A DNA stretch of 36,183 nucleotides from a virus (lineage: Duplodnaviria > Heunggongvirae > Uroviricota > Caudoviricetes). Location of the stretch: IMG/VR virus record IMGVR_UViG_2737471857_000022. One strand, 5' to 3'. The position numbers and the translations under genes were made by a program. Numbering within the stretch: position 1 is the stretch's first letter; every line of letters begins with the position of its first letter. Below the pieces are notes generated by a model. That model saw only the letters and a list, made by a program, of their open reading frames with translations, searched no databases and had not been told where the DNA came from. This document shows, piece by piece, positions 1 to 36,183 of the stretch.

Positions 1-351
1 ATGCGAGGGACAGTCGAAATTATGCGTTATCCCGTCACTCTTACACCCGCGCCGGAAGGCGGTTATATGGTTTCTTTTGTGGATATCCCTGAAGCGTTGA
101 CGCAGGGCGAAACTGTCGCTGAAGCGATGGAAGCGGCAAAAGATGCTTTACTGACCGCATTTGATTTTTATTTTGAAGATAACGAGCTTATCCCTTTACC
201 TTCGCCATTAAATAGTCATGATCACTTTATTGAAGTGCCTTTGAGCGTCGCCTCTAAGGTATTGCTGTTAAATGCTTTTTTACAGTCAGAAATCACTCAG
301 CAAGAGTTAGCCAGGCGAATTGGCAAACCTAAATGTTGTAAACCCCAATAA
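1..351 (+). pseudogene. hicB: hicB-type antitoxin gene, 3'-truncated: HicB-like sequence for ~111 codons, then 5 foreign codons (CCKPQ) and stop
   Basis: ORF 1..351. Residues 8-111 (MRYPVTLTPAPEGGYMVSFVDIPEAL...ELARRIGKPK) match my recollection of enterobacterial HicB (N-terminal domain plus start of the C-terminal HTH). The frame diverges at nt 334 and stops at 349-351. Everything downstream is phage-like. Confidence 0.55.
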
Positions 352-372
352 CTAAAATTTTTGCAATAAAAA

Positions 373-395
373 AGCCCCATCACAAGGACAGGGCT
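373..395 (-). terminator. weak hairpin plus T-run downstream of the minus-strand ORF 415..720
   Basis: AGCCC/GGGCT stem (373-377 with 391-395); A-run 367-373 on + strand is a T-run on the minus strand. Confidence 0.3.
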
Positions 396-414
396 ATAGA
401 ATCAATCACTTACA

Positions 415-720
415 TCACTTAATATCTTTCATTTTACGGATACGCGCGCTTGCTTCCGGTAGTTCATCCAGTGTTACGTGATAAGCAAGCATACAGACAG
501 GAGTCGGATCGAATCCCTCATGAGTATTGATCAGATGGCTATTCCCGCCTTTAAATTCATCCTGTCCATCCCACATAGCGTACACGTCATCTTCTGCTAC
601 ATAGATAATCAATCCAATAGGGGAGTTAGTAAGCTGGAAGATGCAGCCAGTAGAATCAATACGATGTTCCCGAACGTCATCAACAGTTTCAAAGTCAATC
701 TTAATATCTTTAGTCTTCAT
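415..720 (-). CDS. hypothetical protein (101 aa), first gene inside the putative prophage left end
   Basis: Intact ORF; GAGGG Shine-Dalgarno about 6 nt upstream on the minus strand; no family recognised. Confidence 0.55.
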   Translation of the reverse strand: MKTKDIKIDFETVDDVREHRIDSTGCIFQLTNSPIGLIIYVAEDDVYAMWDGQDEFKGGNSHLINTHEGFDPTPVCMLAYHVTLDELPEASARIRKMKDIK

Positions 721-1017
721 GATTTGCCCTCGCGTGAAAATATTTTCGATTATTTATAAAAAAGACTTGACAAAATCAAAAGGTACTGTTCCACGGGTGA
801 AATAAAGGGAGTTTTCGGCACCCCGGTTTTTGATGTGCGTGTGAGATTTCAAAACAGGTGCAGTGCAGCCCACCAGCGCGGTCGCTACGCGACTATTAAC
901 ACCAGCCAATCCCTTTCCATGCCTCGATCTTTCCCTTCGTTATAAAGCGTTTTAGGCGCTCTCCTGAATGCGCAGATCAGATAAATAATTTTACGCAAAT
1001 TTAATGGAGGATAACCA

Positions 1018-1578
1018 ATGAAAGAAGAATTAACCCTTACAGAAATTTCCCGCTTATACGGCTATACAATTAACGCCGCTAAGAAATGGCAAGAACGAGG
1101 AATGCCATTTAACACCAATACACGACGCGTACCGCTCAAGGAAGGGACCGAATGGATAGCAAAAAATATCATCAGTCCACTCAGGGAAACTACTGTCAAA
1201 GAACAAATCGACGTAGAGAAGTTACGCCGCGAGAGAGCATTAGCGGACGCAGCCGAACGAGAGAACCAGGAAGCAATGAATCTCCTGATTCCCGTCGGGT
1301 ATGTGGAGCAGGAGCTAGCGGAATACTGCGGGAAAGTGAAGCAGACTATTTTGCAGATCGCCACAATCGACGCTTTAGAAATTCTCGAATCTGCCACTGA
1401 CCAGAAAACATTGAAGAATAAGCTAAGGGAGATCATCGAGCGTCGTTTAAATGAAGTAGGGGACTTGTTCGAAAATGCAGATTTGGGAGAAGACGAGGAA
1501 GAAGAATTACCATTAATGGATGAACCGGAAGAACAAGAACAAGAACCAGAAGAAGACGATGAATTTGATGTGTCTTAA
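1018..1578 (+). CDS. Nu1-family HTH DNA-binding protein with acidic C-terminal tail; possible small terminase subunit
   Basis: N-terminus LTLTEISRLYGYTINAAKKWQERGMPF plus EKLRRE resembles lambda Nu1 winged HTH (recalled). 186 aa against Nu1 181 aa. GGAGG SD at 1003-1007. Not adjacent to the large terminase gene, so the role is uncertain. Confidence 0.6.
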   Translation: MKEELTLTEISRLYGYTINAAKKWQERGMPFNTNTRRVPLKEGTEWIAKNIISPLRETTVKEQIDVEKLRRERALADAAERENQEAMNLLIPVGYVEQELAEYCGKVKQTILQIATIDALEILESATDQKTLKNKLREIIERRLNEVGDLFENADLGEDEEEELPLMDEPEEQEQEPEEDDEFDVS

Positions 1579-1625
1579 AACGCGTTATAAATAAATGTAT
1601 GAAAGATGTTGATGGTCAACGTCTA

Positions 1626-1655
1626 CGGGGGATGTTCTCCCCCGCTTAACTTTTA
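1626..1655 (+). terminator. hairpin GGGGGA-TGTTC-TCCCCC with weak T tract
   Basis: Inverted repeat at 1627-1643 directly after the stop of CDS 1018..1578. Confidence 0.35.
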
Positions 1656-1670
1656 AGAGGATATAAAACT

Positions 1671-1955
1671 ATGGCTACTTTTATTACCTATGCTGTCATC
1701 ATTACTATTCTGGCAGTTATTTCTGCTTATAAACTCGGAACCGAAAATAGAGAACGTGCTGAATTATTCTTAGGTGCGTTTGTTGCATTTTCTAGTCTCG
1801 CGTTAATTGTCGAAGGAATTTCTTATATTGTTGGCCTAGTTAGTATGACACTTTTTAACTTCCATCCGGCTATTTCTATGCATCTACTGCTTACTGTATG
1901 CTGGGTATATTGCTTAATCGAATTTTTAACGTTTGTTTTCAAACAGACTAAATAA
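1671..1955 (+). CDS. small integral membrane protein (94 aa, about 3 hydrophobic helices)
   Basis: ORF with AAGAGG SD; strongly hydrophobic segments (ITYAVIITILAVISAY, FLGAFVAFSSLALIV, LLLTVCWVYCLIEFLTFVF). Confidence 0.55.
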   Translation: MATFITYAVIITILAVISAYKLGTENRERAELFLGAFVAFSSLALIVEGISYIVGLVSMTLFNFHPAISMHLLLTVCWVYCLIEFLTFVFKQTK

Positions 1956-2112
1956 TATTGTAATCTGCCATTTCTCCTTATGTGGTTTTAACAGGGGGCT
2001 TTCGAAAGAGAGTTCCCGGTTAAAAGCCATAAAACACATTCAGTACAGTGTTTTTCATAGTCAGTGACTATACAACATAAAAACATAACAAGTATAGATT
2101 GAGTATTAATCC

Positions 2113-2138
2113 TCCCGCCCTTCGGGGCGGTTATTTTT
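2113..2138 (+). terminator. rho-independent terminator (CCGCCC-TTCG-GGGCGG plus TTATTTTT)
   Basis: Perfect GC stem with UUCG tetraloop followed by a T tract. Confidence 0.7.
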
Positions 2139-2217
2139 CTGGCTTTACTAGATAATGTAGCATTATGTTCATTATAAATCCTCATCTTTGTTGTGCAAAC
2201 CTAACCTAAACTTACTA

Positions 2218-2243
2218 GGGACTCTTCGGAGTCCCTTTTTTTA
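2218..2243 (+). terminator. rho-independent terminator (GGGACTC-TTCG-GAGTCCC plus TTTTTTT)
   Basis: Perfect 7-bp stem, UUCG loop, 8 T. Second terminator about 80 bp after the first. Confidence 0.75.
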
Positions 2244-3182
2244 TTGGCAGTAAGAAAAGTTAGTACCGTACATTTCATCATGAAGCATTGCAGCATTGCG
2301 TTTCTGTTCTTCTTCCTCATCTTCTACATCACTAGAAAAATGAGATTTGCCCTTAAAAGAACGAAGTAATTGCAGTGCAGCCATCGGATCACGCATCACA
2401 TCGATTTTCACTTCTACTTCATCATTTGCGGCCTCATCAGCCGCGTTTTCAACTACTGCTACCGGAGCAACTTCTTTAGCTTTCAGTTCTTCAATCTCAG
2501 CTTTCTGTGCTTCGATAATCTGGTCTTTTTCTTCCAGTGCAGCTTTCAGTTCTGCGATCTGTGCTTCCAGTGCAGCAAAGCGATCTTCAACAACCGGAGA
2601 AACAGCATTCACCTGTGCTTCCAGTTCCAGAAATGCTTCGCAAGATTCAATACGTTCTTTCTCTTCACCTTCATAAGCAACCAGTTCTACAACTTCTTTT
2701 TCGGTAGCGTGGCTGTTAAAGAAAACAGCAAAGTAAGGATTGCCGGATTTAGTGAAGTTCAGTTTAGCTTTTCCGGTAACTTCTTTACGACGACCGAAGG
2801 TGATCTGGCAATCAGCGGTATCCTGAAAATCCATGTTAGGAGCGGAAACGATAGCAGTATCACCAGCAATAACCAGGTGGAACAGTTCAGAAGAGTTCTT
2901 AACGGTAAAAGTAACGATGTGGTCTACTGCAACGTCTTTAGCAGGTTTAACGCGGTCGATTGCTTTACGAATGCCGTTAGGCAGTTTACCGTCAACACCA
3001 AAGCCAGCCGCGATCAGTGCTTCACGATGTGCTTTAAAGCCAGCGAAGGCGGATTTCTGCTGCGCAAAGGAAACATGAGCAACAACTTTCGGCTGAATCT
3101 TCTTGTTTGCTTCGGTGCCAAATTTGATAACTGCTTTAGCGTTGGTTACTTCGTTAGTGAAAAAGTTAGCGGAAAATAACAT
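2241..3182 (-). CDS. hypothetical protein (313 aa) with central coiled coil and acidic C-terminus
   Basis: ORF with AGGAG SD 8 nt upstream; heptad-like EAQIAELKAALEEKDQIIEAQKAEIEELKAKE; no family recognised. Confidence 0.6.
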   Translation of the reverse strand: MLFSANFFTNEVTNAKAVIKFGTEANKKIQPKVVAHVSFAQQKSAFAGFKAHREALIAAGFGVDGKLPNGIRKAIDRVKPAKDVAVDHIVTFTVKNSSELFHLVIAGDTAIVSAPNMDFQDTADCQITFGRRKEVTGKAKLNFTKSGNPYFAVFFNSHATEKEVVELVAYEGEEKERIESCEAFLELEAQVNAVSPVVEDRFAALEAQIAELKAALEEKDQIIEAQKAEIEELKAKEVAPVAVVENAADEAANDEVEVKIDVMRDPMAALQLLRSFKGKSHFSSDVEDEEEEQKRNAAMLHDEMYGTNFSYCQ

Positions 3183-3295
3183 TATAAATACTCCTGTGGA
3201 AAGTTAGTTTTAATTGTTCATTTCAAGCCTCCTTTGCTGCAACAAGGGAGGCTTTTTCTTTTTTTAAAGCCATCATATAATTCTCAGTCAAAGTA

Positions 3296-3478
3296 TCAGT
3301 AAACCTCTGCGGTTATCTTTACTTTAATGTCATACTTCTTTAAGAGTTTATGAAAGGTTGATTTATCGATACCCTCATTTTTAAACCACTCTTCAATTCT
3401 CACACCCGGCGTTAACTCAAAGTAGCGTTTAGCCATTTCTAAGATGATTTCGCGAGTGAACTTAACAGGTCGTGCCAT
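3296..3478 (-). CDS. small HTH DNA-binding protein (60 aa), Hin/resolvase-type HTH-like
   Basis: AGGAGG SD 5 nt upstream; ARPVKFT...GIDKSTFHKLLKKYDIK resembles a GRPxK-type HTH; paralogous to CDS 6886..7113. Confidence 0.55.
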   Translation of the reverse strand: MARPVKFTREIILEMAKRYFELTPGVRIEEWFKNEGIDKSTFHKLLKKYDIKVKITAEVY

Positions 3479-3994
3479 CTCGAATCCTCCTACAATGTGG
3501 ATTAATGATTTCTTAAAAAAGAGCGTTAACCGCTCACTATTATTTATATGGGGATTGTATTTTATTTTTCAACCCCTCACATTTATCTCTTATATATGTA
3601 TTTACAACAGAGATATGTTAAAATGTTATTCAGATGTTATCAGGCGTGTTAAATGTGTTAAACCACAGCACGAATTGCTAAAGCGAAGAACACGATTTAA
3701 CCAAATTGATGTATATTCAATCAATTTAGAAAAAGGCATAGCACTTTTTGCTAAAGCGGTGAGCATTAATTGAGCTATGAATTGTAAAGATTTGTTACAA
3801 GATTTTCTCTCAGATCCAAATCTTCACAGACATATAACAATTTAACAGAAGGATAACAATAGGAAGGAAAATCGGTAAATTTTCACTTTCAATACAAATA
3901 TTATGACATATTTATCTCTAATTTTCAAGTATACCACTGTTCCTGCACAGTGTCAACAAAGGACTTTCAAACCTACACTAGCCCTACACTATGA

Positions 3995-4237
3995 AAATTG
4001 CCCCCGAATTTTTGCCCCTGAACCAAAATCCCCTAGATTTCACATCCCATTTTTGCCCCTGAAACCCACTATTTTTGCCCCTGAAATTCTGGGAAACAGT
4101 GATTTTGCCCCTTATTTTTGCCCCTGAAATGCCAATAATTGCCCCTGAAAATCTAATTTTTGCCCCTGAATTTTGCCCCTGAAAAGGATTTGTGAGAAAA
4201 ACTCTTTATAAAACATTAACTTAGTGAGGGGCAAAAC
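3995..4237. repeat. iteron array: at least 6 perfect and 3 degenerate direct copies of TTTTGCCCCTGAA plus one inverted copy
   Basis: Perfect copies start at 4010, 4051, 4073, 4116, 4158 and 4171. Degenerate copies near 3997, 4103 and 4139. Inverted copy GAGGGGCAAAA at 4225-4235. Confidence 0.85.
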
Positions 4238-4239
4238 AG

Positions 4240-4860
4240 GGAATCGGGCGTGCATAGATATTATATAACACATTCGCTACGCTCATGTGTAAAACCAAAA
4301 ACAACAAATAACCAAAAAGATATTAGGAGGGCGTAGCCCGACTGCGCGAAGCGCTAACCAATTACTTCTAGTAACACTAATTTAAACTAGATGATACTAG
4401 ATGGTCTTAGAAGGAATTAACTAGTTTGCTCGCTCGCTTCGCTCACTCTCAAACGTCTGCGACGCCACTGCGTGGCATCGAGAATCACTTCTGAAAGGAT
4501 TTTCTTGAAAGGGATTTTAAACTAGTTACTAACTGATTCTAGAAAGATAGTAATAATCACTTTGAAGATAATAGTAGTTAACTGGTTACTAGATGATTCT
4601 AGATCACTTTAATGATCATGAAAGGTATTGGTTATCCCTTCGGGATTGCAACCTTCGGTTGCTAAATTGCTTCCGGATTATTATTTCTCCAAAAGAAAGA
4701 TTCTTATATTCTAAAGATACTTCTTCGTTTTGATGATGATTTAATCAAAATCTATGAAGGAGGCGAAGCCGACTGAATACCAATTCCTTTCAAATTAGAC
4801 AAAAATTTCTCGTTATAAATAATAGTGTACTTTGTTTGATTCACTTTCTTTTAGAGGATT
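4240..4860. other. about 600 bp non-coding region with clustered ACTAG(A/T)T motifs and tandem UUCG-loop hairpins
   Basis: No ORF of 60 aa or more with an RBS. CTAG-containing motifs at 4366, 4387, 4396, 4420, 4521, 4537, 4588 and 4597. Hairpins at about 4458-4480, 4633-4645 and 4648-4663. Confidence 0.4.
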
Positions 4861-4866
4861 TCCACT

Positions 4867-5319
4867 ATGATCAATACTAAAACTCCTTTCATTCTTCTGG
4901 GTCTGAACCATGATGATAATCTGGCTATGATGCATGTTTTCGCTAATCGTGGTTATAACATCATTCGTCATTCCGAAGACTCCAATTTCTCAACTGCTTT
5001 CTATGCTCTTAAACGTAATGGTCGCCCTACGGTGATCGTAGACTGCTTTACTGATGAAGGTCGTGAACAATACAACAACATTCCGGCAATTATTGTTCGT
5101 GATGACCTGCCGTTTGATGTTCGTGAATATGACGTTGATTTAGGCTCTTACTATGGGATCGCCGATCTTGACCAGATTATGGCTGATTATGGTAAACAAC
5201 CCGCTCAGGAAGCCCCAGAACACGATGAACAAGACGAAGATGACGACGACTACGCACCAATCTGCTTCTCTTCTCAGAATGGCTTCTACGGTTACGATGA
5301 AGGCTTAGATATGCTGTAA
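4867..5319 (+). CDS. hypothetical protein (150 aa) with acidic C-terminal tail
   Basis: ORF with GAGGA SD; codon usage consistent with neighbours; no family recognised. Confidence 0.6.
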   Translation: MINTKTPFILLGLNHDDNLAMMHVFANRGYNIIRHSEDSNFSTAFYALKRNGRPTVIVDCFTDEGREQYNNIPAIIVRDDLPFDVREYDVDLGSYYGIADLDQIMADYGKQPAQEAPEHDEQDEDDDDYAPICFSSQNGFYGYDEGLDML

Positions 5320-5341
5320 GTTAGGTCAACCCTTTGGCGTC

Positions 5342-5383
5342 TTGTCAAGGGGTATTGACAAAATTTTCTGACTTTTTTATGAT
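5342..5383 (+). promoter_or_regulatory. sigma70-like promoter (TTGACA-17 nt-TATGAT) overlapped by palindrome TTGTCAA-N6-TTGACAA
   Basis: -35 at 5355-5360, -10 at 5378-5383, inverted repeat at 5342-5361; a further TTGACAA at 5392-5398. Confidence 0.45.
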
Positions 5384-5439
5384 TATCGCACTTGACAATT
5401 TTGAACCTATTTGACCTAGATTTGTAAAGAGGATGTAAC

Positions 5440-5772
5440 ATGAAAGAATTTACCATCACTAAATCCCTGTATGACTGGACTGTTAAAATCTCCGGCAAAA
5501 CCGTTTCTGTAAGCCCTAGCCATGTAGAAAATGATTGGGGCGTATCCCGTGAAACTATCTCCCGTAGTATGCATGTTCCGTTTGATCTGATGTCCTTAAC
5601 TGGTATTCATGCAATGCTGGAAGTTCGCGAACAATTCGAAGCTGGTAATCACAATGCGACTCCAGTTAGCAATCACCTTCTTACTAATGAAGAACGTGAA
5701 ATCATCGAAAACTGGCGTTATGAATATGCGATTCCTTATTATGAAGAAGATCAGGTAGAAATCGATTGGTAA
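5440..5772 (+). CDS. hypothetical protein (110 aa)
   Basis: ORF with AGAGGA SD; no family recognised. Confidence 0.6.
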   Translation: MKEFTITKSLYDWTVKISGKTVSVSPSHVENDWGVSRETISRSMHVPFDLMSLTGIHAMLEVREQFEAGNHNATPVSNHLLTNEEREIIENWRYEYAIPYYEEDQVEIDW

Positions 5773-5861
5773 TAAATTTCTATTATAAATAAAATTGTTC
5801 CGGTGGTGATGCCGGAACTAGGAGGACCAAATCATTAAACCGTTTAAGGGGAATTAATACT

Positions 5862-6737
5862 ATGAATACTGTTACTACTATGAATACTGCTAACGTTTCT
5901 TTTGATGCTTCTCTGACTGCCACAAAGAAAGAATGGCAAATCGATAAAACCGCTTCAATGTCTCTGGTTGTTGATAACACCAAACCGCTGACCATGTCTA
6001 CTTTGCAGATCGCGCAAATGATGGATCGCGTAGACCGCCACCGTGATATTAAGCGAACTGTTGACCGTCTCGTTTCTTCCGGTGTAATTGTCCACACGCC
6101 AACGGCGCGCGAACAACTGGAAGATAAATTTGGTCGTTCTCGTGAAATTGAAGTTTATCTTCTTGATGAACGTTCGTCATATATTGTTGTTGCTCAAATT
6201 TCGCCAGAATTTACCGCTTTTATCGTTGATGAATGGAAGCGACTGAAAGAAGAAAATGAAAAACTTCGCTCTACTCCTGTTAACCCGTATGCAGACTTTG
6301 AAGAAACAGACTGGATCGAACTGGCATTAGATGAAAAACGCAAAAATAAAAAACTGATTGAGCTACACATTCGCAAATCCGTAGATAGCCATTCTATGAC
6401 ACGTCTGTTAGGCGCTAAAAAGGGCGCTACGAAGGTTAAAGAAGCACTAACGGCCTTGCGTACTGCTGGCTACATTGAGCGCGTCTACGATGAAAATAAC
6501 AAGCCGTGTGGGTATGTTGCTAATGACTCTTCTCTGTCTTTCTGCCGCATGAATGCTCACTACCAACTTGAGTTTACTGTTGATGTTCTTCCGGTGCTGG
6601 TTGAATTGGGCGTTTTGGAAGAAGAACAGAAAGCAACTCTTAAACTACCGCAGCCAAATAACACTATTCTGATTCAAAATAAAGCGGCTGAACGTCTCCG
6701 CCAGAATGTTGGATCACTGGAAGTCTTCGGACTGTAA
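5862..6737 (+). CDS. Rha-like phage regulatory protein / antirepressor-type protein (291 aa)
   Basis: Segment LTMSTLQIAQMMDRVDRHRDIKRTVDRL resembles the Rha-family N-terminal motif (recalled); AAGGGG SD. Confidence 0.5.
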   Translation: MNTVTTMNTANVSFDASLTATKKEWQIDKTASMSLVVDNTKPLTMSTLQIAQMMDRVDRHRDIKRTVDRLVSSGVIVHTPTAREQLEDKFGRSREIEVYLLDERSSYIVVAQISPEFTAFIVDEWKRLKEENEKLRSTPVNPYADFEETDWIELALDEKRKNKKLIELHIRKSVDSHSMTRLLGAKKGATKVKEALTALRTAGYIERVYDENNKPCGYVANDSSLSFCRMNAHYQLEFTVDVLPVLVELGVLEEEQKATLKLPQPNNTILIQNKAAERLRQNVGSLEVFGL

Positions 6738-6844
6738 TTAATTTTTAGCCTCGCCTCGTGCGGGGCTTTTTCATACCTACATCACGCGACTTTTCGCGCC
6801 ATCTTCCACCAACCCGCCGATGGCGTTTTGGACACCCTACAGAT

Positions 6845-6870
6845 ACAAAAAAGCCACTCCGAAGAGTGGC
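6845..6870 (-). terminator. rho-independent terminator for the minus-strand operon 7754 to 6886
   Basis: GCCACTC-TTCG-GAGTGGC hairpin; A6 on + strand is T6 downstream on the minus strand. Confidence 0.65.
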
Positions 6871-6885
6871 AAAGAGAATCAAAAC

Positions 6886-7113
6886 TCAAAAACCTGTTGC
6901 TTCTACGATCTGACCATCACCGATCTGAACATAGAATTTAATGTCTAACTTCTTCATATTCTTATAGAATTGGGCGATTGAGATCCCATGTTCACTAAGA
7001 ATCTGTTCTTTCGCTTCCTTACCACGATCCGCTGTATAATAAGCGTAGGCAATATCAGCCATCTGTTCAGCGTTAAAACGGGCAGGGCGACCGCGAGTAG
7101 CTTTAGTAGTCAT
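6886..7113 (-). CDS. small HTH DNA-binding protein (about 75 aa from the second ATG; ORF opens with GTG at 7146)
   Basis: RGRPARF...GISIAQFYKNMKKLDIK HTH, paralogous to CDS 3296..3478; GGAG SD suits the ATG at 7113. Confidence 0.5.
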   Translation of the reverse strand: MTTKATRGRPARFNAEQMADIAYAYYTADRGKEAKEQILSEHGISIAQFYKNMKKLDIKFYVQIGDGQIVEATGF

Positions 7114-7148
7114 AGTCATTTTCTCCAAATTAAAGTGAATGTTCACCT

Positions 7149-7754
7149 TTATTTAGAGGACTTACATTTTATCGGAAAAAGTTCTTCATCGTCAATACTC
7201 ATAAAGAACTCTGCCTTAATCCCGTACTTCTTCAACCGTGAATAGTATGTACCCCGACTTATATCAACCTTGCGAAGCACTTCAAAGAACCCTTTAGGAT
7301 CGTTGTAATAGTGGCTATAACGCACGTTAGCGAGTTCAACGAATAGTTCCCTTGTATCACCATAGCCTTTCTTGAAAGCCTCGTTACGATAGCGTGTAAT
7401 TGCGTGATTCAATCTCTTCTGTTTCAACACTTCCCTGATCGGTGTCCACTGCAACCGATAGATAGGACCGTCATCAATGCGATAATAACGCTTGATATCA
7501 AAATCAAACCAATCTCGGACTCTCCGAAACTCTGTATGTGATGTTCTATGCTTCTTAAAGAAGTTGTGAACGTCTGTATAACCATTATCGCGGTAAAACT
7601 CTATTAAAATCTCTTTCGCTTCCTCACGACTAAAGCCAGATGTTGTGTAGTCGGTTTTTAAATGCTTATGCTTAACTGGCAAACGATATTCATGATCGGT
7701 ACAACAAGACAAGGCTAATTCTACTTCATCTCTTTGTTGCTGATTAATTAGCAT
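7149..7754 (-). CDS. hypothetical protein (201 aa) with C-terminal HTH related to the two small HTH proteins
   Basis: AAGGGGG SD 5 nt upstream; C-terminal [16 protein letters not shown] matches the HTH motif of 3296..3478 and 6886..7113. Confidence 0.6.
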
Positions 7755-7841
7755 ACAACCCCCTTAAATCTTAATACCCGTATTTATCAAAATATCAACA
7801 ATTTAATAAATACCTTCATATTTCGTAATGAGGGTAATTAC

Positions 7842-29379: not shown

Positions 29380-29658
29380 ATGACTGAAATTATATATGGC
29401 GGTATCGGTGTTATCGCCTTAATTTGTGGTGGTCTTTGGAGACTTCACCGAAATCAATTAGCAACAGAAAATAGATTGTCGAAATTAGAGTCCAATGATG
29501 CATTGTTTAATCAGAAGTTTGAAACAATGCAAAGTAACCACGACCAGATCGCCGAGAGAGTTTATCGCATGGAACAAACACTACACGGTATAGAGAAGAA
29601 AGTGGTTGCGATGGACGCTAAGTTTGACCAAGTTCTCGACATACTCAAACAAAAATAA
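29380..29658 (+). CDS. membrane-anchored coiled-coil protein (92 aa); possible holin or spanin-like lysis component
   Basis: N-terminal TM segment IYGGIGVIALICGGLW followed by a charged helical region; GGGGG SD. Confidence 0.45.
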   Translation: MTEIIYGGIGVIALICGGLWRLHRNQLATENRLSKLESNDALFNQKFETMQSNHDQIAERVYRMEQTLHGIEKKVVAMDAKFDQVLDILKQK

Positions 29659-29676
29659 TAATAAAGGGGTGAATAT

Positions 29677-29847
29677 ATGAAGAATAAACTTAAGAAATAT
29701 TTTGGTTATCTCTTGATTATCGCCCTCACTTATAACGTAGCAATTAGACCTCTGCTAACGTCCTTTGGGCTTGAACTCCCGGCTATGACCGTGGATGAAC
29801 AATTGCTAAGGACACTGGCGGGGGTCTTTTCGTTATTAGGGGGCTAA
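29677..29847 (+). CDS. small membrane protein (56 aa, two hydrophobic segments); holin/antiholin candidate
   Basis: ORF below the 60-aa track cut-off, found by reading; AAAGGGG SD; stop abuts the next ATG. Confidence 0.4.
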   Translation: MKNKLKKYFGYLLIIALTYNVAIRPLLTSFGLELPAMTVDEQLLRTLAGVFSLLGG

Positions 29848-30927: not shown

Positions 30928-31281
30928 ATGTTAAGTAAGCATTTTTCTCGCAAGGAATTTAAATGTAAATGCGGAAAATGTGATTATGATACAATCGACG
31001 CTGAATTACTGGTAATTCTTGAGGATGTACGAGAACACTTCGGTAAACCAGTGATTATTAACAGTGGCAACCGTTGCCCGGCTCATAACAAGAATGTAGG
31101 CGGGGCAACCAACAGCTATCACGTTCGAGGCCGTGCGGCTGACATTGTGGTCAAGGGTGTCTCCCCTGATATTGTCCATGCTTATCTTGATGGGAAATAT
31201 CCTACTCAATACGGCTTAGGAAAATATAAAACCTTTACGCATATTGATTCCAGATCAAAAAAATCACGGTGGAATGGATAA
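30928..31281 (+). CDS. endolysin, zinc peptidase M15 family (117 aa)
   Basis: SGNRCPAHNKNVGGATNSYHVRGRAADIVV ... FTHID gives a His/Asp/His metal-ligand pattern typical of M15 peptidases; TAAGGGGGTAAT SD. Confidence 0.75.
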   Translation: MLSKHFSRKEFKCKCGKCDYDTIDAELLVILEDVREHFGKPVIINSGNRCPAHNKNVGGATNSYHVRGRAADIVVKGVSPDIVHAYLDGKYPTQYGLGKYKTFTHIDSRSKKSRWNG

Positions 31282-31312: not shown

Positions 31313-31894
31313 TTAGAATATGCTGGCGACGTTAGCTATATTTCTGACCATTTTTTCATTATAAACAAACGTTTCTGTAGCACCTTCTTTAATATCAAAA
31401 TCACCTTTTACTAGGTTTTTCTTGATAAACAATTCTGCCGCGTATGCGTCTTTTTCGTCTTGAAATTCGAAAGTCTCGATGATATCAAATTTCATCTTAT
31501 TCTGGCATCTTAGCTTATGTTTTCTCGTCAACACATTGTGACTTACTCCAACCTTACCCACATCACCACACCGCATAACATATAATACTGGTTGCCCATT
31601 TTTATATTTGTTGTCATATTTGCTACGATTACACGGGCACACAGTAGGATTATGTAAGAATTGTTTTGCTGTTATATCTCTGATTCTTGCGCAGCTTTCA
31701 CACTCTAGCACAATACGGCTATTGATTGATTTATACTCACCTTTGAATCCGTGATAAATCAAGGGTAAACCCTCGTTTTCAATACGGGTCACGATCCTTG
31801 CTTCCATATCAATTGGATGTGATGGCGCTTTGCCATTTTTGGTGCGGATAAAATTGAACGGGATATCACATGCTTTGCGCACATCATTCATCAT
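31313..31894 (-). CDS. zinc-ribbon plus GIY-YIG-like (T5orf172-type) domain protein (about 193 aa from ATG 31894; ORF opens at GTG 31906)
   Basis: CESCARIRDITAKQFLHNPTVCPC then PVLYVMRCGDVGKVGVSHN..R..H; paralogous to CDS 32423..33421; GAGG SD. Confidence 0.55.
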   Translation of the reverse strand: MMNDVRKACDIPFNFIRTKNGKAPSHPIDMEARIVTRIENEGLPLIYHGFKGEYKSINSRIVLECESCARIRDITAKQFLHNPTVCPCNRSKYDNKYKNGQPVLYVMRCGDVGKVGVSHNVLTRKHKLRCQNKMKFDIIETFEFQDEKDAYAAELFIKKNLVKGDFDIKEGATETFVYNEKMVRNIANVASIF

Positions 31895-31934
31895 AAAAAA
31901 CCTCACTTAATTTATCTTATAGGCATTACCTTTA

Positions 31935-32387
31935 ATGTTGATGATCGAGTTCGTAGAAACCGAATTAACTAAACTGGCTTCCGAAATGGAAGAAGAAACT
32001 CCGGCAGAAGGAACCAGTATTAACGATCTTATTCTGGCAGCAGACACCGCAGATGATAAAGTGATATTCGACGAAGTTGATCCGTCTCTGGTTGAAGCAA
32101 TGAAAGAACCTGAGATCGCCATTGAAGAAACAAAAGAAGAATCTCCAGCAGTTGAACCAGTGGTCGAAGAAGTTAAGTCAGATGTTGAAGAAGCACCGGA
32201 AGTTAAAGTGGAATCTCCGGTAGCCAACATTTTCTCTAACGAAGCAGAACATCGTTCCCCAGCACATGACACTGATTCATTTTGCGATCTTACTGGCTTC
32301 CGTCCGACCATTTGCTTGATCGGTGGCGGTCGTGGTTACTACTCCTGCCCGTGGTCTTCAACCATTACAACAAATTTTTCTCAATAA
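31935..32387 (+). CDS. acidic low-complexity protein (150 aa); existence uncertain
   Basis: Glu/Pro/Val/Ala-rich ORF with host-like codon usage but no clear SD; the antisense ORF 31907..32311 is an alternative reading. Confidence 0.35.
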   Translation: MLMIEFVETELTKLASEMEEETPAEGTSINDLILAADTADDKVIFDEVDPSLVEAMKEPEIAIEETKEESPAVEPVVEEVKSDVEEAPEVKVESPVANIFSNEAEHRSPAHDTDSFCDLTGFRPTICLIGGGRGYYSCPWSSTITTNFSQ

Positions 32388-32422
32388 ATAGTAGTGAACT
32401 TATTATTTTCGAGGACACTAAT

Positions 32423-33421
32423 ATGAATACTACTTTAGCAAAGGATATCGAATTTACCGCAAAAAGCAAACGTGCGACCCCTCCGGTCGAATATGAAACC
32501 AGAATCATTAAAGTTTGTCAAGCGCATGGATGGTTATACAGTGGTTTTGTGCTTCCTGTAAAGAAACCATTCCAGAACACCAAAGTTTGCATAGAAGTTA
32601 ACGGAAAGGTTAAAACGCCATGTATTAGTCATGTTCTAACTGGTCAGTTTACTGGCAAAGATAGAGTATCACCGCCTAAGAAGAAGTTTAGATTTACCGA
32701 AGAAGAACACTTAGAAAACGCTCGCAAGTTCTACAAGCCGATAGGGTGGGATGTGTTAGGTCTGGCTGAACCTTATCAGGGTGTTGACACTAAACTAATT
32801 CTTCGTTGTAAGTGCCACGGAAAGATTCACAAGAAAGGTGATTTACACAATAACCGCAGACAAGGCGGGTTAACATGCCCTTTGGTTAGGGGTGTACTTA
32901 AATCAATTCAGAATGGTAGAAAACAGGTTATCAGAAACAAGTTTGCACAGCGCCCTATGCACTTTTATCTAATTCGTGTTGGCGAGAAGTTTTTCAAATA
33001 TGGAATTACCACTCGCAAAGATCCGATGCAACGGGTAAGAGAACACCAGAAGCACACCAGCGAGAAAATCACCTTTGAATGCTCACATTTGTTTAACATT
33101 GGATGGAAAGCTGGTGATTTAGAAATGGGGATTAAAAAGAATATTCAGGGCAAGAAAATCCCACGTAAGGTAATGAATAGCGGATTCACAGAAACGCTAC
33201 CGATTAGCAAGCTGAAAGATGTTAAATCATTCATCAATGAATACATCCACACCAACCCATCTAAGCCAATGTATTTTGATGATACCAACGCAATCAATCT
33301 GAACAACTACATTAGTGATGAAGACATAGAACGAGATTTATCGCAGTGGATGAATGCACCGTTAGCTGATTTAACACCGGAAAACTTAGAACTCGATTTA
33401 AGCCCTTTAGAGGCTCTCTAA
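32423..33421 (+). CDS. zinc-ribbon plus GIY-YIG-like (T5orf172-type) domain protein (333 aa from ATG 32423)
   Basis: GAGGA SD 7 nt upstream; LRCKCHGKIHKKGDLHNN...LTCP then MHFYLIRVGEKFFKYGITTR...R.REH; paralogue of 31313..31894. Confidence 0.6.
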   Translation: MNTTLAKDIEFTAKSKRATPPVEYETRIIKVCQAHGWLYSGFVLPVKKPFQNTKVCIEVNGKVKTPCISHVLTGQFTGKDRVSPPKKKFRFTEEEHLENARKFYKPIGWDVLGLAEPYQGVDTKLILRCKCHGKIHKKGDLHNNRRQGGLTCPLVRGVLKSIQNGRKQVIRNKFAQRPMHFYLIRVGEKFFKYGITTRKDPMQRVREHQKHTSEKITFECSHLFNIGWKAGDLEMGIKKNIQGKKIPRKVMNSGFTETLPISKLKDVKSFINEYIHTNPSKPMYFDDTNAINLNNYISDEDIERDLSQWMNAPLADLTPENLELDLSPLEAL

Positions 33422-33494: not shown

Positions 33495-35174
33495 TTAAAT
33501 TCCAAATTCCTGTAATGGACCTGATATTTCCTCTTCTGGTTTCCAGTTCTTATCTGTCAGCATGTCTAAACATGGATGCAAAACAAGCCCGTTACTTTCC
33601 AGAATCTGTCTATCATTGATAGTTTTCAAATCAACGAAGATCCGGCCTTTCCTCGGTCCTCTTGAATTTTCTATTACAACTCTCTGGGTCTTGCCATCGA
33701 TGTATTCCAGTACAAACAAGTTTTTGTACTTGTCAATCCTGCTACACCCGATCCGTTTTAGAGCTTGCTTAATCTTAAACCGGACCTTAATGCGATCCTC
33801 GTTGTAAACATCTTCTAAATCAAATTCTGCGAGCTTCTCCCAGCCTTGAGAGTCAACAGAATACATTTCCTCTTCTGCCATCTTGATCTGATTGTAGAGT
33901 GTTTCACGCTCGCTATTGAGGGTAGTAATCTGATCGGCTAGTTCCTTCGTTGCTCCTGTCATAGCAGAAAGGGCAATCAGGTTATCAATCTTGCGTGATA
34001 TCTCATCAACCTGTACTTTCAACGCCGGAACCGGATTAGCCTTATCCTCAGCAATCCAGATTTTATCAGCCAGCAATTGCAATACAGCTTTCTCTAATTG
34101 ATCACCTCGAAAACTCCAGTTTGTATGCACACATGCAATACGACTAGAGCGCATTGCATCGCATGAATAACGATATTGGTTAGGACGTTTGTTAGTTCCT
34201 TTCACCTTAACCATAGCGGAACCGCAATGTTCACATTTCAATAGACCAACACCACTAAGCAAGGGAATAGGTTTAACTTCTTCCTTGTCTCCATAGTTAC
34301 ATGCTCTAACACCAATGCTTTTCTTAAGGTGATAAAACTCAGCGTCATCTAGCACACGAGGATAATAATCCTTTAACTCATACTTAACGCCATCTACAGA
34401 GATTTCCTTGATACCAATCAAAGCGCGGGTATGGAACAACCTTTCAATCATTGCCCGTGACCAGTTTGAATGCCTCTTGTGACTTGCGGCTGGTGGTGGT
34501 GTGTATGTCGCGTTAAGGTGATCCAGTATCTCGGCGGTTGACCGTCCATTCCTGCGTAATTCCACAACTTCCTGAACAATAGGGAAGAAGACCGGATGAG
34601 GAAGCACATAACCAGATGTGGTATCAGTCCACCACATATTCTTTCCAATTTCCTCGATTGCAACAGCCGGATTTTGTGGATTTTCTTGATGAGCTTTAAT
34701 CTTAATCAATGCGCTTGAGTTAGTACGATTGCGCTTAGTCTGACTTTCCTCGTTAGCTCTCGCAAACAACATGACACTCAACAGCAAATCAATAGGATTG
34801 GCATTAACCGATTCCTTGCTATAGACCTTACCATCCATGCCAGTTACGATAGTTATTCCCCTACGGATAATCGAGAGAAATAGCTCTTGTGCTTCAATGA
34901 TGGATTGGCGAGAGATACGGTCTAAGTTTTCCACAACCAGCCAGCTACCAACCGGAACGGATCGACCAATCTCATCCAGAAAGCGAGATAGTGCACCTGT
35001 TCTACTGTTAGCCCCTTTGAATGCAGATACACCAAAATCCTGATAGCTTGTAACTAGCTCAAGATCATATTTTGCGGCTATCTCTGCGGCTGTTCTCTTC
35101 TGGCGTTCATAAGAACTACCATCCGCTTGCTTCATAGACGAGAAGCGAATATACGAATACAGTTTAGTTTTCAT
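33495..35174 (-). CDS. large serine recombinase (phage integrase), about 559 aa from ATG 35174
   Basis: N-terminal resolvase motifs YIRFSSMKQ, SYERQ, LVVENLDRISRQ; zinc ribbon CEHCGSAMV...YSCDAMRSSRIAC; C-terminal coiled coil. Confidence 0.85.
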   Translation of the reverse strand: MKTKLYSYIRFSSMKQADGSSYERQKRTAAEIAAKYDLELVTSYQDFGVSAFKGANSRTGALSRFLDEIGRSVPVGSWLVVENLDRISRQSIIEAQELFLSIIRRGITIVTGMDGKVYSKESVNANPIDLLLSVMLFARANEESQTKRNRTNSSALIKIKAHQENPQNPAVAIEEIGKNMWWTDTTSGYVLPHPVFFPIVQEVVELRRNGRSTAEILDHLNATYTPPPAASHKRHSNWSRAMIERLFHTRALIGIKEISVDGVKYELKDYYPRVLDDAEFYHLKKSIGVRACNYGDKEEVKPIPLLSGVGLLKCEHCGSAMVKVKGTNKRPNQYRYSCDAMRSSRIACVHTNWSFRGDQLEKAVLQLLADKIWIAEDKANPVPALKVQVDEISRKIDNLIALSAMTGATKELADQITTLNSERETLYNQIKMAEEEMYSVDSQGWEKLAEFDLEDVYNEDRIKVRFKIKQALKRIGCSRIDKYKNLFVLEYIDGKTQRVVIENSRGPRKGRIFVDLKTINDRQILESNGLVLHPCLDMLTDKNWKPEEEISGPLQEFGI

Positions 35175-35193
35175 ACCATTTCCAAACAAAAAC

Positions 35194-35223
35194 GCCCCTA
35201 CCGCGTATTATAACGATAGGGGC
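35194..35223 (-). promoter_or_regulatory. inverted repeat GCCCCTA-N16-TAGGGGC directly upstream of the integrase start
   Basis: 7-bp arms with a TATTATAA-containing loop; followed on the minus strand by GTTTTTGTTT, so it may also terminate the upstream small gene. Confidence 0.4.
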
Positions 35224-35239
35224 ATTGGTTAGTAAGTCA

Positions 35240-35485
35240 TTAATATTTCTTTCCAGTTAGTTTTGCATCACGTTTATTAATATCCTCGATATGACTCCAT
35301 ACACACGCAGTAATAAAGTCGTCATCGTCACCAACTCCGGCAACCTGTGCTAATTCAGTACACAGTTGATTTAAAGAAGGTGCAACGGCAGCACGTTTGA
35401 CACTATCACCCTGTACATATTGTTCGGCATTCGCAGCACCAACCAAACCCAGAGCAAGAACGATACCAGCGATAATCTTTTTCAT
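35240..35485 (-). CDS. small secreted protein (81 aa) with cleavable signal peptide
   Basis: MKKIIAGIVLALGLVGAANA/EQ is a typical Sec signal with AxA site; AAGAGGA SD; two Cys in the mature part. Confidence 0.6.
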   Translation of the reverse strand: MKKIIAGIVLALGLVGAANAEQYVQGDSVKRAAVAPSLNQLCTELAQVAGVGDDDDFITACVWSHIEDINKRDAKLTGKKY

Positions 35486-35530
35486 AGTAGAATTTCCTCT
35501 TGTTATTTGAATTACGATATATTTATATCG

Positions 35531-35656
35531 TTAAAAATTGATGCTAATTACCAGACCAAACACAACCGCACCAATCAAATCAATCCAGTTAATACACAAT
35601 CCGCTATATTCTTTCTTGAATGTCTTGGATGAAATGCCATCATGAAATTGTTTCAT
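35531..35656 (-). CDS. possible 41-aa membrane peptide (MKQFHDGISSKTFKKEYSGLCINWIDLIGAVVFGLVISINF)
   Basis: Found by reading (below the ORF-track cut-off); GGGGTGAG upstream; single C-terminal hydrophobic helix. Confidence 0.3.
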   Translation of the reverse strand: MKQFHDGISSKTFKKEYSGLCINWIDLIGAVVFGLVISINF

Positions 35657-35756
35657 TGCTCACCCCATACTAACGACAATATAAGAAAGACTAATCATGG
35701 TTGTGAGACTACCTCCCACGAATGAGATAAAAGCTAACATGTTTGATTCTCCATTT

Positions 35757-35782
35757 AAAAAGCGGTGGGAATTGCACCCACC
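35757..35782 (-). terminator. terminator for the minus-strand gene 36183 to 35797
   Basis: GGTGGG-AATTGCA-CCCACC hairpin with A5 on + strand (T5 on minus). Confidence 0.5.
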
Positions 35783-35796
35783 AAATTAGAAATTAA

Positions 35797-36183
35797 TTAA
35801 GCGCGAACGATGGTCAGAGTATCCAGCAAACCTTTTTCGTATAATTCGAAACACGTTTTATATTGCTCAATCTGGAAACCATAGCGGGTGATCTTATTCA
35901 GTAGAATAATCACGGTATTCTCATCTAGGTATTGTCCTTGCTTACCAATTACATATGACTCGCGGGATAGTCTCAGCTTACGGAAACCTTTAACACCTAA
36001 TTCCTTAGCCACCGCTTTAATCTCTTTAATCTCACCCTCAGCAGCTACATATTCAGCGTCGATAATCTCAGGTGATGATCTCAGTGCTACCAGAACTAAG
36101 GCCATTGCTTCTTCTTCGGTACGAGCAACACCAGCTTTCTCGAAAGTCATCTCGCCAAATTTACGAATCATGATATTGAACAT
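35797..36183 (-). CDS. hypothetical protein, at least 128 aa; start at or beyond the window edge
   Basis: ORF runs to the last base of the window; no family recognised. Confidence 0.5.
   Translation of the reverse strand: MFNIMIRKFGEMTFEKAGVARTEEEAMALVLVALRSSPEIIDAEYVAAEGEIKEIKAVAKELGVKGFRKLRLSRESYVIGKQGQYLDENTVIILLNKITRYGFQIEQYKTCFELYEKGLLDTLTIVRA

Follow-up and report, generated by a model that had tools for sequence, protein, structure and literature searches.

We analyzed the integrase-proximal end of the prophage contained in IMG/VR virus record IMGVR_UViG_2737471857_000022 (36,183 nucleotides, the whole of which is called the window here), an Escherichia coli prophage integrated in hicB. 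Between the gene of its large serine recombinase (integrase, int) and the window end lie three small open reading frames (ORFs) of 81, 41 and 26 codons, all on the minus strand (Table 1). The 41-residue peptide and its 25/26-residue partner form a constant core that goes along with the integrase, and the 81-residue gene behaves like one interchangeable cargo, that is, an accessory gene of the moron type. Small envelope proteins at prophage ends are already known in kind; what is new here is the conserved micro-peptide pair together with a swappable secreted cargo and, possibly, a promoter split at attP. A first-pass annotation of this DNA had described the 81-residue protein and the 41-residue peptide and had correctly placed both between the integrase and the window end; it had overlooked the 26-codon ORF, which is coupled to the 41-codon one.

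The distinction between core and cargo comes from 44 related loci (identified below by L numbers), which were extracted from complete genomes, IMG/VR prophages and Logan/ENA contigs. The 40/41-codon ORF was present in all 44, bearing out the conservation among related prophages on which the first-pass annotation had staked its peptide, and the 25/26-codon partner in at least 41. The pair keeps its linkage and orientation with int in every locus, including those without a secreted cargo. What follows the 41-codon ORF varies: the 81-residue gene in 15 loci, a 113-residue N-terminally anchored coiled-coil protein plus the 81-residue gene in 8, a 132- to 139-residue protein in 13, a 77-residue protein with two cysteines in 2, a 348-residue protein in 1 and nothing in 5. 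Four of the last five carry instead a 62- or 75-residue ORF between the 26- and 40-codon ORFs, which brings the alternative contents of the slot to seven over the 44 loci (81, 113 plus 81, 132–139, 77, 75, 62 and 348 residues). Prophages that are otherwise nearly identical may have the 81-residue gene, lack it or carry genes of unrelated secreted proteins in its place, and the slot of sister prophages holds unrelated secreted, lipoprotein or membrane-anchored proteins. The signal peptide MKKIIAG.VLALGLVGAANA and the ribosome-binding region are common to the 81-, 77- and 132- to 139-residue proteins, and divergence starts right after the cleavage site. In a divergent lineage (L038 and L039, 4417-4737 in each), a 106-residue lipoprotein (lipobox ISGC) is encoded immediately upstream of the 26-codon ORF. 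The same two loci have a 62-residue protein without a signal peptide wedged between the 26- and 40-codon ORFs, with ATGA overlaps on both sides. This lineage, sought as the source of a third attP, was absent from complete E. coli genomes.

The two micro-peptides bear the marks of translated membrane proteins. The hydrophobic stretch of the 41-residue peptide spans residues 25–39 (15-residue Kyte-Doolittle mean of 2.5) and is preceded by K11, K14 and K15; in agreement with the single membrane helix proposed at first pass, the product is predicted to be a tail-anchored inner-membrane peptide with a 15-residue cytoplasmic head. This head (MKQFHDGISSKTFKK) is invariant in 10 protein clusters whose overall identity is 63–98%, and the C-terminal transmembrane helix is variable, ending SIN[FI]. 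Compared with L007 and L008, the head shows five synonymous codon changes, including TCC to AGC for serine, and no amino-acid change; when three divergent lineages were compared at the DNA level, the proportion of synonymous differences (pS) in the head was 0.55 versus 0.05 for non-synonymous ones (pN). Over the whole ORF the ratio of non-synonymous to synonymous rates (dN/dS) was 0.17–0.27, the remaining five frames all hold stops, and one lineage carries an in-frame 3-nt deletion. The 26-codon ORF lies 3 nt upstream and encodes a hydrophobic single helix (MLAFISFVGGSLTTMISLSYIVVSMG) with no charged residues and a grand average of hydropathy of 1.6 (range 1.6–2.2). Orthologs with a length of exactly 26 codons and the common motif SF...T[IM][IL]S..Y.VV occur in L007, L008 and L038, with a pS of 0.70–0.75 (near saturation) versus a pN of about 0.40, and the 25-residue variant of L036 keeps the C-terminal VYIVV motif. 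The small ORFs and their neighbours overlap by ATGA in L007, L008 and L038, indicating that the 26- and 41-codon genes are translationally coupled.

Given the dN/dS values, the frame stops, the exact lengths, the in-frame deletion and the Shine-Dalgarno sites, we consider all three ORFs to be protein-coding; judged by these signatures, they are real genes, those of 81 and 41 codons being under purifying selection. The NCBI Prokaryotic Genome Annotation Pipeline (PGAP) covers only the 81-residue gene and skips the other two in RefSeq genomes. A single gene formed by the 26- and 41-codon ORFs through TGA read-through was considered and rejected: the two share a frame in the window, but not in L007, L008, L038 and L041. 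A natural in-frame 26+40 fusion was found on an ENA contig (P0019, 68 residues, two helices); it reads ...SMG-WA-MKQ..., a change from stop to Trp that fits TGA to TGG, and is not ancestral because the frames differ in other lineages. The 41-residue peptide was not found when one genome of each GTDB species was searched, so the module appears to be confined to Escherichia prophages.

The 81-residue protein has the Sec signal, AxA site and two cysteines ascribed to it at first pass. A charged n-region (MKK) is followed by an h-region (IIAGIVLALGLVGA) and by a c-region with the cleavage site between ANA and EQ, which makes a 20-residue signal peptide; the best 15-residue hydropathy value is 2.6, at residues 4–18. 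The lipobox is absent, with LPAM_1 below its cut-off and no cysteine after the cleavage site at +1. These features are those of signal peptidase I substrates, and the product is predicted to be exported by Sec and cut after ANA. Fifteen homologs were found, with 73–96% identity and in E. coli only; A18, A20, C42 and C61 are invariant across the 16 sequences, and C42 and C61 are the only cysteines. The alleles form two classes that differ at 48% of synonymous versus 13% of non-synonymous sites (dN/dS of 0.19), with values of 0.08–0.14 in the helices and 0.7 in the loop at residues 50–57. These helices were delimited in an AlphaFold2 (AF2) model, in which the mature 61 residues form a two-helix hairpin (residues 27–49 and 55–77; predicted local distance difference test score, pLDDT, of 76–91) with one cysteine in each helix; C42 and C61 could make a disulfide.

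No relatives outside this family emerged. In a full hidden Markov model search of 1.84 billion representatives, the family was a single 50%-identity cluster; of the five other matches, four covered the signal peptide only, and the fifth was a marginal one (E 3e-4) to a repetitive protein of 1160 residues. Foldseek comparison of the model with PDB and BFVD returned nothing at E <= 0.001 (best E 4.5 and 1.3, respectively). Kinship to the 75- and 77-residue two-cysteine cargoes, which are related to one another, was rejected, as hhalign and Smith-Waterman scores were no better than those of shuffles. For the alternative cargo of 139 residues, the structure model was a confident 8-stranded beta-barrel (pLDDT of 87). 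This cargo had no Pfam MliC match, and it differs from the periplasmic lysozyme and peptidoglycan-hydrolase inhibitors MliC, PliC, PhiA and ACP in that the motifs of that family are not arranged as they are in its members; the barrel is to be taken as a lead and not as membership.

According to the first-pass annotation, the 81- and 41-codon genes each have their own terminator. A strong intrinsic terminator does follow the former (−22.9 kcal/mol, z of −4.9, with a U-run; 0 of 200 shuffles folded as well), but the hairpin at the end of the latter is weak, AU-rich (−5.7 kcal/mol) and without a U-tract, and is therefore not a terminator. Moreover, the strong terminator is conserved before int in every relative, with any cargo and even without one, so it belongs to the backbone and not to the 81-residue gene. 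Its loop contains a TATAAT hexamer, and a transcript starting just past this hexamer would be without the 5′ stem half and so would not be terminated; the hexamer could serve an insulated, separately regulated int promoter, with a poor −35 region (3/6). The weak hairpin corresponds to a palindrome (ACGATATAAATATATCGT) that overlaps the stop codon of the 41-codon ORF; in L008 two substitutions placed symmetrically preserve it (ACGTTATAAATATAACGT). It occurs only where a cargo follows, being absent in L007 and L038, where none does. Proteins could bind to it, RNA could be processed there, or it could mark the junction at which cassettes are exchanged. A third hairpin, upstream of the 26-codon ORF (−11.4 kcal/mol, z of −2.7, U5), keeps its stem in L036 by a compensatory change (GGCGGG/CCCGC) with loss of the U-run, and is absent in L007, L008 and L038, whose ORFs overlap directly. 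It may be an attenuator or a terminator.

The location of these genes at a prophage end, as assumed at first pass, was confirmed from the junction sequences. The attR site maps 42 bp beyond the window end and adjoins the hicB 3′ remnant and ydcR (in strain ETEC1717, NZ_CP122876, the 128-codon ORF is followed by 36 bp, then by the hicB 3′ remnant and then by ydcR), so the small genes truly lie between attR and int. In divergent relatives the genes from att through the 40-codon ORF overlap one another, which points to a single operon starting at att and running toward int. The promoter scan revealed no site upstream of the 81-, 41- or 26-codon ORF, save one of 9/12 inside the 26-codon ORF (CTCACA-18-TATATT, 35707-35678). 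A perfect TATAAT stands on the phage arm ahead of the first gene, in the 42 bp of prophage that lie outside the window (L001 14786-14830); in the prophage, the position 18 bp upstream of this hexamer is host DNA, with a −35 match of 0-1/6. In two scans, neither attR nor 260 bp of host flank had a site of at least 9/12 directed into the operon, and with no promoter reading in from attR, expression of the genes in the lysogen is doubtful and not indicated by the sequence.

In the reconstructed attP of the circular genome, the TATAAT is joined to a TTTACA from the phage side of attL, giving TTTACA-18-TATAAT (11/12), one of 3 such sites on both strands of the whole circle. The attP of prophages inserted in ycdX has TTGACT-18-TATCAT, with the same geometry and different arm sequences (L003 4570-4640, L035 3240-3290). 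Because the hexamers are arm-specific and not mirror images, they are not a by-product of attP symmetry. In silico, the −35 and −10 elements thus stand at the right spacing only once the ends join, and we infer a promoter that would be split by integration and restored by excision or circularization. The attP promoter-like site would overlap the integrase binding sites and be destroyed by integration. Transcription by read-through from the phage gene upstream of attP was rejected as an alternative, since that ORF (415-720, minus strand) ends in a terminator-like hairpin and a T-run just before attP.

Junction promoters of mobile elements include the circle-junction promoters of IS911 and IS30 and Pcirc of ICEclc. 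State-dependent promoters have been described for ICEKp1, ICEclc and ICEEc1 (PMC13023037). The arrangement predicted here resembles them in that a promoter into the recombinase-proximal operon would exist only with the element ends joined. It differs from ICEKp1 and ICEclc, in which transcription crosses the junction from an intact promoter at the far end, whereas here the −35 and −10 are predicted on opposite arms of a serine-integrase attP.

Taken together, we tentatively favor the explanation that these genes form an accessory module acting at the cell envelope, for example in the exclusion of other phages, with the peptide pair resident in the membrane and expression mainly from the circular genome. 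In such a module, the constant pair would be the membrane part; it may serve as a scaffold, or it may modulate a host protein of the inner membrane to which the invariant head binds. The periplasmic protein that is exchanged would be a fast-evolving effector, most plausibly one that blocks competing phages in the periplasm or inner membrane (superinfection exclusion). Transcription would start at the promoter with its −35 and −10 on opposite sides of the attP crossover, and the operon would be active while the genome is circular, right after infection or excision, and mostly silent once the prophage is integrated. The envelope role is suggested by the hydropathy and charge patterns, the AxA site, the invariant cysteines, the AF2 hairpin and the lipoprotein in the operon of L038 and L039, and the dN/dS of 0.7 in the hairpin loop versus about 0.1 in the helices is a possible arms-race signature.

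Known envelope proteins of superinfection exclusion include T4 Imm (membrane) and Sp/Spackle (which inhibits the gp5 tail lysozyme in the periplasm), P1 Sim, HK97 gp15, TP-J34 Ltp and lactococcal Sie2009, the last two being encoded next to int. The small genes described here resemble them in the small size of their products and the predicted targeting of these to the inner membrane or periplasm, in lying beside an integrase gene or att site, and in being variable among related phages; the mature 81-residue protein, like Spackle and Ltp, is predicted to be small, all-helical and periplasmic. However, it has no sequence or fold similarity to Spackle or to any characterized exclusion protein. Further differences are that a constant micro-peptide pair accompanies the variable secreted part, and that the sequence does not indicate expression in the lysogen.

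Several points weigh against the envelope-exclusion explanation. The first-pass annotation had likened these products to superinfection exclusion proteins or membrane toxins, and this found no support in the comparisons made: scans of the three small proteins with Pfam, PHROG, PADLOC and NCBIfam gave nothing but a sub-threshold lipoprotein-signal match, and neither they nor Foldseek with the 81-residue model disclosed similarity of sequence or fold to a known exclusion, toxin, holin or defence protein. The match list of the barrel is headed by the unrelated Cap15 and OmpW, and belongs to another cargo allele, not to the 81-residue protein. The attP promoter is a consensus match inside integrase-binding arms; no contiguous attP was found in IMG/VR or the JGI metagenomes, the circular junction being a reconstruction, and the perfect TATAAT that persists at attR could give basal expression in the lysogen. 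Two of the hairpins inside the proposed operon, that upstream of the 26-codon ORF and that before int, have U-runs. Finally, an operon that is off in lysogens would provide exclusion only during infection, which is unusual for a temperate phage. An envelope or exclusion function is thus one that we infer.

A somewhat unlikely, though serious, alternative is that these are classical lysogenic-conversion morons, expressed constitutively in the lysogen by means of the TATAAT left at attR or of a weak internal promoter, with superinfection exclusion or a surface change as the outcome. Morons are promoter-gene-terminator units inserted in prophage genomes (the Hendrix/Juhala concept). The 81-residue gene resembles them in its variability among near-identical prophages, in its own ribosome-binding site and in the strong terminator after it, which isolates the cassette from int; the position at the prophage end, the perfect −10 hexamer still present at attR and the 9/12 site inside the 26-codon ORF would also fit. 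But no −35 accompanies the hexamer at attR at either integration site, and the internal site is not conserved, being weakened to TATCTT in common variants and absent in L007 and L008. The 81-residue gene also differs from morons in lacking its own promoter at the scan threshold, in a terminator that is conserved backbone, and in an exchange that takes place behind a common signal peptide, so that part of the coding sequence is itself backbone. Variable presence is found for this gene and not for the constant 41- and 26-codon ORFs, which are core rather than accessory, and no similarity to known conversion genes was detected. The lysogenic-conversion reading proposed at first pass is therefore reasonable for the 81-residue gene, with its moron-like variability, but not supported for the 41-residue peptide, which is not optional; the lack of a recognizable lysogen-active promoter weakens it further.

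The pair could also be a regulator of the life cycle, either a CIII-like inhibitor of an FtsH-type protease or a modulator of integrase or excision, made with Int in the circular state; we regard this as unlikely. Small regulatory membrane proteins such as lambda CIII, AcrZ, MgtS, SgrT and Caulobacter SidA are similar in that a single helix of 26–41 residues with a short conserved soluble segment suggests one larger membrane or membrane-associated partner, and they differ in that the 26- and 41-residue peptides have no homology to any of them. The strict linkage and co-orientation with int, cargo-less loci included, the predicted expression from the circular form and the scarcity of other candidates (in the rest of the early region, PHROG sees no recognizable repressor or decision gene) all favor such a role, and strong purifying selection on the invariant cytoplasmic head implies a single fixed partner in the cytoplasm. 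Nevertheless, the peptides have no Pfam, PHROG or NCBIfam match to lambda CIII-type FtsH inhibitors and no similarity to a recombination directionality factor; a strong terminator separates the pair from int, and the cargoes between and after the two ORFs are envelope proteins, which fit an envelope role better. A combination of the two ideas, a state-sensing circuit, appears more speculative and quite unlikely: the peptides would be made only while the genome is circular, bind a host factor in or associated with the inner membrane and set the outcome of lysogeny versus lysis or of integration, while the periplasmic cargoes would ride on the same pulse and shut the envelope to competitors.

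It is very unlikely that the hydrophobic peptides are membrane-damaging toxins of a type I or holin-like kind, serving in abortive infection, prophage stabilization or lysis timing. The 26-residue peptide does resemble Ibs- and ShoB-type toxins in size, hydrophobicity and lack of charge, and a coupled upstream ORF recalls the mok/hok arrangement. However, both peptides are encoded in a multi-gene sense operon and not in a stand-alone toxin-antitoxin locus; no plus-strand promoter-like site for an antisense RNA was found in 35500-35800, Rfam at E <= 10 over 35150-36183 gave matches at chance level only, and there was no Pfam or NCBIfam toxin match (Hok, Ldr and TisB included) and no PHROG or Pfam holin match. 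Candidate holin-type genes already exist, since small transmembrane ORFs (29380-29847) adjoin the endolysin gene (30928-31281) upstream of it, about 4 kb away and on the other strand. The idea that the 41- and 26-codon ORFs are non-functional, whether chance ORFs or leader peptides in an untranslated regulatory region upstream of the 81-residue gene or int, is hardly credible: apart from their very short length and their omission by PGAP it has little to commend it, and it is largely refuted by the dN/dS and frame tests, with protein conservation despite synonymous divergence, exact lengths, an in-frame indel, stops in the other frames and their own Shine-Dalgarno sites.

The region exposes an annotation gap, as two micro-proteins of 26 and 41 residues that look translated are skipped by pipelines, yet are strictly conserved with a serine integrase. 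The cargo slot, in which unrelated envelope proteins are exchanged behind one signal peptide, is a compact natural system for the diversification of prophage accessory genes. The split promoter, if true, would be a simple tie between the expression of integrase-proximal genes and the physical state of the phage genome, possibly of use in serine-integrase engineering; a state-sensing circuit, if true, would represent a new phage micro-protein pair and a new wiring of a serine-integrase attP. If none of these readings holds, the region is one more set of orphan prophage-end genes.

Table 1. Coordinates in the window of the features at the integrase-proximal end and at attL.
Feature	Position	Strand	Remarks
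attL core AAACCTAAA	325-333	-	From att mapping with junction sequences; same core at attR
TGTAAA (TTTACA on the minus strand)	337-342	-	−35 half of the split promoter-like site; phage side of attL
Large serine recombinase (integrase), 559 residues	33495-35174	-	Final gene in the shared orientation; PGAP start confirmed in L001
Strong intrinsic terminator	35191-35226	-	Between the 81-residue gene and int
81-codon ORF	35240-35485	-	Shine-Dalgarno GAGGA
Perfect 18-bp AT-rich palindrome	35514-35531		Junction of the 41-codon ORF and the cargo slot
41-codon ORF	35531-35656	-	Shine-Dalgarno GGGGTGAG
26-codon ORF	35660-35740	-	Shine-Dalgarno GGAG
Hairpin with U5	35763-35783	-	Between the 128-residue gene and the 26-codon ORF
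128-codon ORF	35797-36183	-	First gene of the att-proximal operon; phrog_14908, Rho_N/SAP-like motif

The integrase has the domain composition of large serine recombinases, with a catalytic Resolvase domain (PF00239, 7.8e-15), a Recombinase domain (PF07508, 1.4e-7) and a zinc beta-ribbon (Zn_ribbon_recom, PF13408, 6.6e-10), and belongs to phrog_95. At the other end of the operon, the 128-codon ORF stands between the small genes and the true prophage end; in relatives it is replaced or joined by other small genes. Of 5,426 complete E. coli genomes, 58 (about 1%) carry the 2.8-kb int-proximal region, on the chromosome in every case. A DNA search of the window against sequenced phages gave no match, and the best identities to any sequenced phage were at most 43% for TerL and at most 31% for the integrase; by these comparisons, this is an uncharacterized temperate phage of E. 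coli without a close sequenced relative. The literature search on this prophage and on the hicB and ycdX insertion sites returned nothing relevant.

Sister prophages are about 91% identical across the int region, but are inserted in ycdX instead of hicB. In these ycdX-type relatives (L003, L004, L007, L008 and L036-L044), attR adjoins ycdX-ycdY-ycdZ-csgG and the attP arms are altered, so that nature provides, in the hicB and ycdX types, two serine integrases that differ by a switch of site specificity. Positions 1-333 of the window are the 5′ part of the host hicB. The insertion (window 1-351; L001 14822-14941) swaps the last 39 HicB residues (QEIARLFNLHHATKIDAVQLAAKALGKELSLVMV...) for five phage-encoded residues (CCKPQ*); the lost residues are presumably the helix-turn-helix part, and the toxin-neutralizing N-terminal part is left intact, with derepression or rewiring of hicAB in lysogens as a possible consequence.

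In the region 334-7800 of the window, PHROG recognized no repressor, Cro or replication genes, and the sole regulatory match was an Ant-like anti-repressor (5862-6737). Almost directly after attP comes the gene of the small terminase (1018-1578). A second variable region flanks the integrase between the lysis genes and int, with genes at 31313-31906 (minus strand) and 32282-33421 (plus strand). Both are endonuclease-like (phrog_681; the PGAP homolog is named GIY-YIG nuclease family protein, and the CapR and MUG113 Pfam matches are sub-threshold), and they are present, absent or replaced in sister prophages, as a comparison of L002 and L006 illustrates.

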